A DNA stretch of 64,000 nt from a virus. Lineage: Duplodnaviria > Heunggongvirae > Uroviricota > Caudoviricetes. Below, piece by piece: positions 44,291-44,846 of this stretch. The number at the start of each line of letters is the position of its first letter. Positions within the stretch are counted from its first letter, which is position 1. The stretch lies in IMG/VR virus record IMGVR_UViG_2684623127_000006; one strand, 5' to 3'. The notes under the pieces are model-generated. The model did not search any database. It was given only the letters and a program-made list of their open reading frames with translations, and was not told the origin of the DNA. Both the position numbers and the translations under genes were made by a program.

Positions 44291-44638
44291 TCAGGCCAGC
44301 GGTGGAGTCTTCAGAGAACCCGTAATTATTCCCGGTAGTTTTCCTCTGTAGGTTATCAACACATCCTGCGCCTCTAAAATTACGGGGCGCTTTTCCGGCA
44401 ACGGACCATCCCCTTCACATAACCCGGCAGCAACATCCATGAAAAACTGCTTCGCCTGCTTTTTCGCCTCAGCTTCGTAAAACTCCAGCGTGGCACCTTC
44501 AGTACGGTCAAGACTAATCGCCACATCTGGCAACAACAGTGACGGATACCCACCAATTTCCAGTGCCACAGTAACAGTAATCTTATCCGGGTAATTATTT
44601 ATCCCTTTAACAACCAGTTCGTATTTTTTCTTCATCAC
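44291..44638 (-). CDS. Hypothetical protein inserted between holin and endolysin
   Basis: 115 aa, start overlaps holin stop; no recognisable motif. Confidence 0.45.
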   Translation of the reverse strand: MMKKKYELVVKGINNYPDKITVTVALEIGGYPSLLLPDVAISLDRTEGATLEFYEAEAKKQAKQFFMDVAAGLCEGDGPLPEKRPVILEAQDVLITYRGKLPGIITGSLKTPPLA

Positions 44639-44639
44639 T

Positions 44640-44846
44640 TTACTCTCCCCGCGCCGCCTTACGCCGGTCTTCTTTAATCTTGAAATACAGGTTCGTCAGA
44701 TATGTCAGCAGCCCAAACAGCAGACTCCCCAGCACGCCTATCGCCACCCACTGGGACGGAGAGACTTTGTCCAGCAGCTGCAGTAACCAGTATCCCGTCC
44801 CCACCGCTGACGTGGTGTATGACACACCTGTTGTGATTTTTTCCAT
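44640..44846 (-). CDS. S: Pinholin (phage 21 S-type class II holin)
   Basis: 68 aa [68 protein letters not shown]. Confidence 0.85.

Follow-up and report, generated by a model that had tools for sequence, protein, structure and literature searches.

A small gene lies between the holin and endolysin genes of the window, a 64,000-nucleotide (nt) stretch of prophage DNA (IMG/VR record IMGVR_UViG_2684623127_000006). We found that this gene is the O157:H7 allele of ydfR, which is already annotated in K-12, in RefSeq O157 genomes, and in Pfam, and that the slot it fills, with an S21-type holin on one side and an RrrQ-type endolysin on the other, is polymorphic and dispensable. We regard both its identity as a ydfR allele and its accessory status as close to certain. 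The gene itself is known. What it does is unproven, with an effect on host RNA decay more probable than one on lysis. Our analysis adds two points: (i) in S21-type cassettes the holin-endolysin (S-R) junction serves as a slot for highly variable cargo, and (ii) the DUF1327 domain, which defines the YdfR family, moves between several late-operon sites.

Identity of the gene

All lysis genes of the cassette lie on the minus strand, and coordinates refer to the whole window. The gene, its parts, and the genes on either side of it are as follows.

44291..44635, minus strand: ydfR-family gene (DUF1327), with ATG at 44635 and 114 amino acids (aa); this is the start used by RefSeq
44638, minus strand: alternative in-frame GTG start of ydfR, giving a 115-aa reading
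44291-44293, minus strand: ydfR stop codon, TGA
44414..44635, minus strand: N-domain, codons 1-74; family-defining, beta-beta-beta-alpha, acidic (isoelectric point, pI, 5.1)
44291..44413, minus strand: C-terminal module 'PEKRPVILEAQDVLITYRGKLPGIITGSLKTPPLA', codons 75-114 plus stop; mildly basic
44643..44650, minus strand: ydfR Shine-Dalgarno sequence GGGGAGAG, inside the last holin codons, read directly off the sequence
44640..44846, minus strand: S21-type class II holin (pinholin type), 68 aa, single start; PF04971 'P21 holin S', E = 7e-33
44241..44290, minus strand: spacer and endolysin leader, 50 nt, with no obvious Shine-Dalgarno sequence
43707..44240, minus strand: RrrQ-type lysozyme with a signal-arrest-release (SAR)-like N-terminus, 177 aa; PF00959, E = 1.5e-24

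The translated product matches PF07041 (DUF1327) over residues 2-113 with a score of 156.7 bits against a cut-off of 25 (E = 1.8e-46), and it matches phrog_406 with E = 1.2e-64. At the identical position in Escherichia coli O157:H7 strain NE122, RefSeq annotates a 'YdfR family protein' (WP_000731241.1). K-12 YdfR is 47% identical to the window protein over aa 1-74 (BLASTP, E = 1e-23), and the tails of the two proteins cannot be aligned. By every criterion that could be tested, the gene belongs to the YdfR/DUF1327 family. A first-pass annotation, made from the DNA letters without database searches, had described a 115-aa open reading frame (ORF) with no recognisable motif. The ORF is real, being the GTG reading at 44291-44638 on the minus strand, as its Pfam score and the selection on its N-domain (see below) indicate, and the family matches overturn the remark about motifs. 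Other collections were silent: NCBIfam gave no match for the window protein, PADLOC no family at E ≤ 0.01 for this protein or for a long-form relative, a PDB sequence search with the window protein nothing below E = 1, and a Foldseek comparison with viral predicted structures nothing at E ≤ 0.001. Two papers on the lysis cassettes of Shiga toxin (Stx) phages (PMC8136144, PMC10462455) contain no discussion of a ydfR-family gene.

The holin TAA occupies 44642-44640, and the GTG and ATG codons of ydfR follow 1 nt and 4 nt past it, in a different frame. The start had earlier been placed 2 nt before the holin stop, which is incorrect, and the end 50 nt before the endolysin, which is exact (gap, 44241-44290). 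The 4-nt spacing, together with GGGGAGAG within the holin gene, fits translational coupling. A consensus scan found no sigma-70-like promoter on the coding strand at 44640-44900 and no terminator-like site directly after ydfR. The window ydfR belongs to the Q-dependent late operon; its position there, suited to coupling, and its absence from many equivalent cassettes support the earlier suggestion that it is late-expressed cargo. A regulatory hairpin in the 50-nt endolysin leader was dropped as a candidate, as the folding of the leader was no better than that of shuffled sequence (z = 0.38).

DNA resembling the ORF is present in 3,158 of 5,426 complete E. coli genomes, in 1,257 at a coverage of at least 80%, with up to eight copies per genome. 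The protein family is small, with 91 cluster representatives out of 1.84 billion at E ≤ 0.001. Its N-domain occurs in 100 of 50,697 phage records, every one an Escherichia phage, and the carriers include H-19B (with a 100% identical N-domain), many Stx1a and Stx2c phages, mEp460, Evi, and PhiR42_1. Among species-representative genomes, the two-module architecture of the window protein is confined to Escherichia.

Family proteins are modular. Module A is the N-domain (aa 1-74); module B, present in the window protein, reads 'EKRPVILEAQ..ITY.GKLPG.ITGSLKTPP'; and module C is an optional coiled-coil extension that yields 176- and 183-aa forms. One further domain gives YdfR forms of 287-297 aa, and one protein (P0234) joins a C-like segment to module B with a different N-terminus and no module A. 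The farthest family members consist of the N-domain alone (72-76 aa); a search of genome contigs for this distant subfamily (P0262) returned no match. Many database entries of the family are truncated, duplicated, or frameshifted versions. Rare holin-YdfR fusion proteins (184-187 aa, with both Pfam domains) were treated as frameshift or gene-calling products because they are out of frame relative to the window arrangement.

Variation at the holin-endolysin junction

We surveyed the slot in 71 holin-anchored viral loci with enough flanking sequence; these are the closest relatives and not independent samples. A DUF1327 ORF precedes an RrrQ-type endolysin in 33 of the 71 loci, an RrrD-type endolysin abuts the holin in 21, and an RrrQ-type endolysin lies 4 nt past the holin in 8. 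The holin also stands without ydfR in K-12 DLP12, where essD and rrrD abut (holin 82% identical). The remaining slots have other content, for example a 185-aa protein that has no Pfam family and no N-domain but shows homology to the C-terminal extension found in long YdfR forms. In some slots there is an 11-codon ydfR stub, and the 650 nt or so behind it contain no ORF on the same strand. The holin and endolysin are 4 to 1,316 nt apart, with the distances grouped in about a dozen classes (examples among loci L092-L171 are L110, 3208-3810; L122, 3208-3894; and L138, 1345-1348).

The edges of the slot are steadier. On the left, the junction GGGGAGAGTAA-NNNN-ATG is largely conserved before whichever gene comes after the holin, and on the right the last 20-45 nt of the endolysin leader (...CGATAAAYCCTGATAAATATCC-ATG) are largely conserved whatever occupies the slot. 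Plastic content between largely conserved junctions makes this a recombination hot spot, not a fixed three-gene unit. Comparison of S-R intergenic content across relatives, a check that the first-pass annotation had proposed, has therefore shown ydfR to be optional. Escherichia members with the gene in this slot have an S21-type holin on one side of it and an RrrQ-type endolysin on the other, as in the window, K-12 Qin, NE122, mEp460, Evi, PhiR42_1, and the 33 viral loci.

An S21-type dual start also yields an antiholin. We compared holin starts with ydfR content. A dual start, M-[YDN]-Q-M (mostly MYQM), is present in 62 of 80 related loci, and the single-start form seen in the window in 18. 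In the window, the codons leading up to the holin start read GGA GAC ATA CAT CAG ATG (GDIHQM; 44844-44861, minus strand), with no upstream in-frame Met. ydfR is present at 3 of 14 single-start holin loci versus 30 of 57 dual-start loci. Having no association with a lost antiholin start, YdfR does not look like an antiholin substitute.

Fold, selection, and localization

An AlphaFold2 model built from a 23-sequence alignment gave residues 1-75 a mean predicted local distance difference test (pLDDT) score of 89.1, with a predicted template modeling score of 0.77. The modeled N-domain has antiparallel strands at 5-14, 18-27, and 37-43, then a long helix at 50-74. Y5 and Y53-E54 are conserved family-wide (23-member alignment, down to 25% identity), and the N-domain is the sole part common to the window protein, K-12 YdfR, and the 72-76-aa stand-alone homologs. 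The C-terminal module (residues 75-114) is conserved among E. coli variants, and an unrelated tail replaces it in K-12 YdfR. Structure prediction, also proposed earlier, was thus informative for the N-domain and not for residues 75-114, where pLDDT stays below 50.

The window ydfR truly encodes a protein and is under purifying selection: among 42 distinct alleles, the median pairwise ratio of nonsynonymous to synonymous substitution rates (dN/dS) is 0.30 for the N-domain and 0.54 for module B. The maximum 19-residue hydropathy (KD19) is 1.18 for the window YdfR versus 1.83 for the holin, and the protein has no signal or membrane segment, so we predict a cytoplasmic product. The helix of the N-domain bears a semi-conserved basic patch, A-[IK]-K-x-A-K, in the family alignment; we take this to recall the KKxAK motif of double-stranded RNA-binding domains (dsRBDs), as a lead only and not a test. 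By topology and profile match the domain is not a dsRBD: the beta-beta-beta-alpha model is without the first helix of the alpha-beta-beta-beta-alpha dsRBD fold, and there is no dsrm match in Pfam at E ≤ 1.

Homologs at other late-operon sites

Distant homologs of 72-76 aa are found between tail genes M and L (L006, L008/L009), before tail gene M (L007), after an I-like tail gene (L004/L005), and directly after Rz (L010). None of these sites is an S-R slot; all lie among late genes, either tail or lysis, and the tail clusters are lambda-like. With the DUF1327 domain present at several late-operon sites, position by itself is a poor guide to a lysis role.

Directly before the AGGAG Shine-Dalgarno sequence, about 25 nt upstream of the DUF1327 start, loci L004, L005, L007, L008, and L009 carry the motif GCC-GRAA-GGC, which could fold into a 3-bp stem with a GNRA-type loop. 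This common upstream motif suggests that the mobile unit includes the 5' leader. Stand-alone DUF1327 genes are often trailed by a small convergent ORF (L005, 4244-4576; L006, 754-966; L007, 693-992; L010, 768-1328; and L175, which is phage Evi, 2744-3040). The ORFs of L004 and L005 encode the same protein, and there are four distinct proteins in all, of which the L010 and Evi proteins lack a Pfam match. Because the convergent ORF proteins are mutually unrelated, we excluded a conserved partner gene.

Possible functions of YdfR

The one experimental study of a family member implicates RNase E and RNA rather than lysis (PMC13232886). In that study (RNA Biol 2026), aa 1-72 of K-12 YdfR gave two-hybrid signals with Rne 1-597, full-length Rne, and Rng; full-length K-12 YdfR interacted with Rne 1-597; and Strep-YdfR co-purified Rne(1-598)-FLAG as well as DNase-resistant nucleic acid. 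Overexpression of K-12 YdfR changed few transcripts and did not affect growth. The fragment that interacts with RNase E coincides with the family-defining N-domain.

Our preferred reading is that the window YdfR would be made late in the lytic cycle as accessory cargo. The partners of its N-domain would be host RNase E (and RNase G), bound at the catalytic N-terminal half, or RNA, or both; a limited number of transcripts would then be decayed or processed differently, with YdfR acting as an adaptor or a shield and not as a global inhibitor. From the comparisons, we infer that the product is not part of the lysis machinery. The binding step and its effect on the fate of those transcripts are possible and leaning toward doubtful. 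In a broader proposal, which seems unlikely to us, YdfR-family proteins would form a new class of temperate-phage factors that modulate RNase E or RNA in the late phase and tune the stability of the long late transcript. The consequences would nevertheless be of interest: in H-19B, YYZ-2008, and many Stx1a and Stx2c phages, ydfR lies on the same strand as stx and a few kb downstream of it. If the RNase E link holds for the phage alleles, the ydfR genes of Stx1 and Stx2c phages, placed behind stx in this way, could influence how stable late mRNA is and hence how much toxin and how many virions are made.

Several points weigh against a role of the window protein in RNA decay. The link to RNase E comes from one paper and from an overexpressed, tagged protein; its authors allowed that the RNA might have come from a contaminant, and overexpression was almost without effect on the transcriptome (PMC13232886). 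The K-12 homolog studied is only 47% identical in the relevant domain, and the acidity of the N-domain (pI 5.1) is unusual for an RNA binder. The prophage also looks defective (see below), so ydfR may never act here. Finally, a role in lysis still has some room, given that in all Escherichia members the gene keeps its tight, conserved place behind the holin.

Such a role could be that of a lysis-timing modulator: a soluble protein, held at a fixed ratio to the pinholin by coupling, that binds the charged C-terminal tail of the holin or the tethered SAR endolysin and delays or sharpens triggering. The soluble antiholins T4 RIII and P1 LydB serve as models. In every Escherichia phage or prophage examined, the gene lies 1-4 nt past the holin stop with its Shine-Dalgarno sequence inside the holin, and the distant homolog that directly follows Rz (L010) is again in a lysis cassette. 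A Keio deletion of K-12 ydfR is among the hits for envelope leakiness, assayed with chlorophenol red-beta-D-galactopyranoside (CPRG; supplement of PMC3879167), although the kan cassette may have caused this phenotype through polarity on rrrQ, the SAR endolysin gene downstream. However, the same holin type does without ydfR in DLP12 and in at least 29 of the 71 viral loci, other homologs lie in tail clusters far from any holin, and the presence of ydfR is not linked to loss of the antiholin start (3 of 14 versus 30 of 57). YdfR also has no membrane segment, and overexpression of the K-12 protein left growth unaffected (PMC13232886). Timing control, which the first-pass annotation had also suggested, gained no support from any of the tests made here, and we consider it quite unlikely. 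An antiholin acting as a holin isoform or by a membrane tether was rejected: ydfR is a separate gene in another frame, its product has no hydrophobic segment, and it does not obligately co-occur with the holin.

Two other explanations would leave lysis aside. YdfR could be accessory cargo of another kind, such as an anti-defence, superinfection-exclusion, or host-takeover factor, with the RNase E two-hybrid signal incidental. Its moron-like distribution, with variable late-operon insertion points, presence or absence in close relatives, and mosaic alleles and tails, fits this idea, as does the narrowness of the family (91 cluster representatives, and Escherichia-only carriers in the phage collection); narrow distribution is typical of fast-evolving phage-host interface genes. 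Yet the protein has no PADLOC match, no similarity to solved or predicted viral structures of known function, and no conserved partner gene, and ydfR, lacking its own promoter and terminator, is probably not expressed in a repressed prophage. On balance we find other cargo somewhat unlikely. Alternatively, ydfR could be a functionless passenger kept as a spacer between two essential lysis genes. The plasticity of the slot, often with remnants such as the 11-codon stub, the many truncated, duplicated, or frameshifted database entries, and the small effect of K-12 overexpression (PMC13232886) would all agree with a passenger, but the N-domain keeps a dN/dS of 0.30 across diverged alleles and its confidently predicted fold is conserved down to 25-35% identity in other genomic contexts. 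Moreover, an empty slot with a 4-nt junction exists, so no spacer is needed, and a passenger appears very unlikely. The best overall explanation remains the blend of a ydfR allele in an accessory position with an RNase E/RNA mechanism, to which, taken as a whole, we give somewhat less than an even chance.

Prophage context and neighboring genes

The rest of the cassette and the regions that mark the state of the prophage are listed here.

42867..43436, minus strand: Ant-like gene between endolysin and Rz, 189 aa; P22_AR_N, E = 1.4e-45; ORF11CD3, E = 5.5e-6; phrog_524 'anti-repressor Ant'
42721-42870, minus strand: hydrophobic ORF between the Ant-like gene and Rz, 49 aa; RefSeq hypothetical protein, with no Pfam match
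42246..42713, minus strand: Rz i-spanin; PF03245, E = 4.9e-50
42308-42478, minus strand: Rz1 o-spanin ORF embedded in Rz, +1 frame; lipoprotein with lipobox VVSAC and a proline-rich body
44902..44928, minus strand: terminator-like hairpin and T-run just upstream of the holin; 11-bp stem with 7 GC pairs, then TTTTTGTTTT
About 27011-27373, 61939-62621, and 1-14700: defect and tandem-prophage regions

The first-pass annotation had called the cassette phage-21 type. The label suits the P21 holin S (PF04971), Rz (PF03245), and the embedded Rz1; it does not suit the endolysin, which is RrrQ-type, with 90% identity to K-12 RrrQ and only 32% to the R21-type RrrD. The window holin is 82% identical to both K-12 EssQ and EssD. 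The endolysin has a Gly/Ala-rich hydrophobic N-terminal segment and an E35-x8-D44-x5-T50 triad, and its SAR behavior is a prediction. Similarly, the gene between endolysin and Rz is antirepressor-like, as had been proposed, by its P22_AR_N, ORF11CD3, and Ant PHROG matches, and its description as Bro-N was not borne out, with no such match reported at E ≤ 1. Q-modified late transcription presumably passes through the hairpin at 44902-44928.

The 3.1-kb cassette is 98.8% identical to that of Stx1 phage YYZ-2008, in which RefSeq names the gene 'YdfR family protein', and 12 kb around the cassette are 100% identical to strain NE122. The prophage adjoins ynfA/speG and carries dicB, ydfC, and relBE, which makes it the counterpart of K-12 Qin. 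It is apparently defective: its integrase is frameshifted, tail gene L is truncated, and K and I are missing. It stands in tandem with part of a second lambdoid prophage, whose own tRNAs are at 307-559, and the two are separated by nleG7 and IS66/IS256 elements. Downstream of Q and three tRNAs, genes of the TerB family and DUF3927 occupy 47460-48085 (minus strand), the place of stx1AB in the otherwise near-identical YYZ-2008. A match to the small RNA STnc100 (Rfam, 47283-47455, minus strand; 101.8 bits against a gathering score of 47) is placed between these DUF3927/TerB genes and a NanS-p-like esterase gene.

Comparison with known systems

K-12 YdfR (b1555, P76160), encoded in the Qin cryptic prophage, is like the window protein a member of PF07041, and its gene lies 4 nt past an S21-type holin and before an RrrQ-type lysozyme. 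The Qin order essQ-ydfR-rrrQ-rzpQ/rzoQ is the window order holin-ydfR-endolysin, and the two prophages are alike in their ynfA/speG and dicB/relBE neighborhood. They differ at the end of ydfR: K-12 YdfR has a 29-aa basic tail and a 4-nt overlap with rrrQ, whereas the window has the 40-aa 'EKRP...KTPP' module and a 50-nt gap. Stx and other lambdoid coliphages (H-19B, YYZ-2008, BP-4795, mEp460, PhiR42_1, Evi) likewise carry the gene in the S-R slot, and the N-domain is identical or nearly so in H-19B and many Stx1a and Stx2c phages. Unlike the window prophage, with its TerB and DUF3927 genes, Stx phages have stx upstream; phage Evi differs in having a 72-aa N-domain alone plus a convergent ORF.

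T4 Srd, which is phage encoded, and E. coli RapZ offer a functional analogy only: for both small proteins, contact with the catalytic half of RNase E and an effect on decay have been reported (PMC13232886). Their likeness to YdfR would be one of function, not of sequence or fold. In contrast to Srd, YdfR is a late gene product of temperate phages, and overexpression of the K-12 protein barely changes the transcriptome, contrary to the reported effect of Srd.

The soluble antiholins T4 RIII and P1 LydB and the dual-start antiholin S21-71 resemble YdfR as small proteins encoded beside a holin. YdfR differs from them in that it is no holin isoform, does not constantly co-occur with the holin, has homologs outside lysis cassettes, and has no lysis phenotype on record. 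A known defence protein was also set aside, there being no PADLOC match. Lambdoid morons such as bor and lom are, like ydfR, optional genes inserted among conserved late genes and varying in close relatives. Compared with a classic moron, ydfR shows the same presence and absence but, by consensus scan, has no promoter and terminator of its own, and its product is neither a membrane protein nor a lipoprotein. By these features, ydfR looks like a late lytic gene and not like one expressed in the lysogen.

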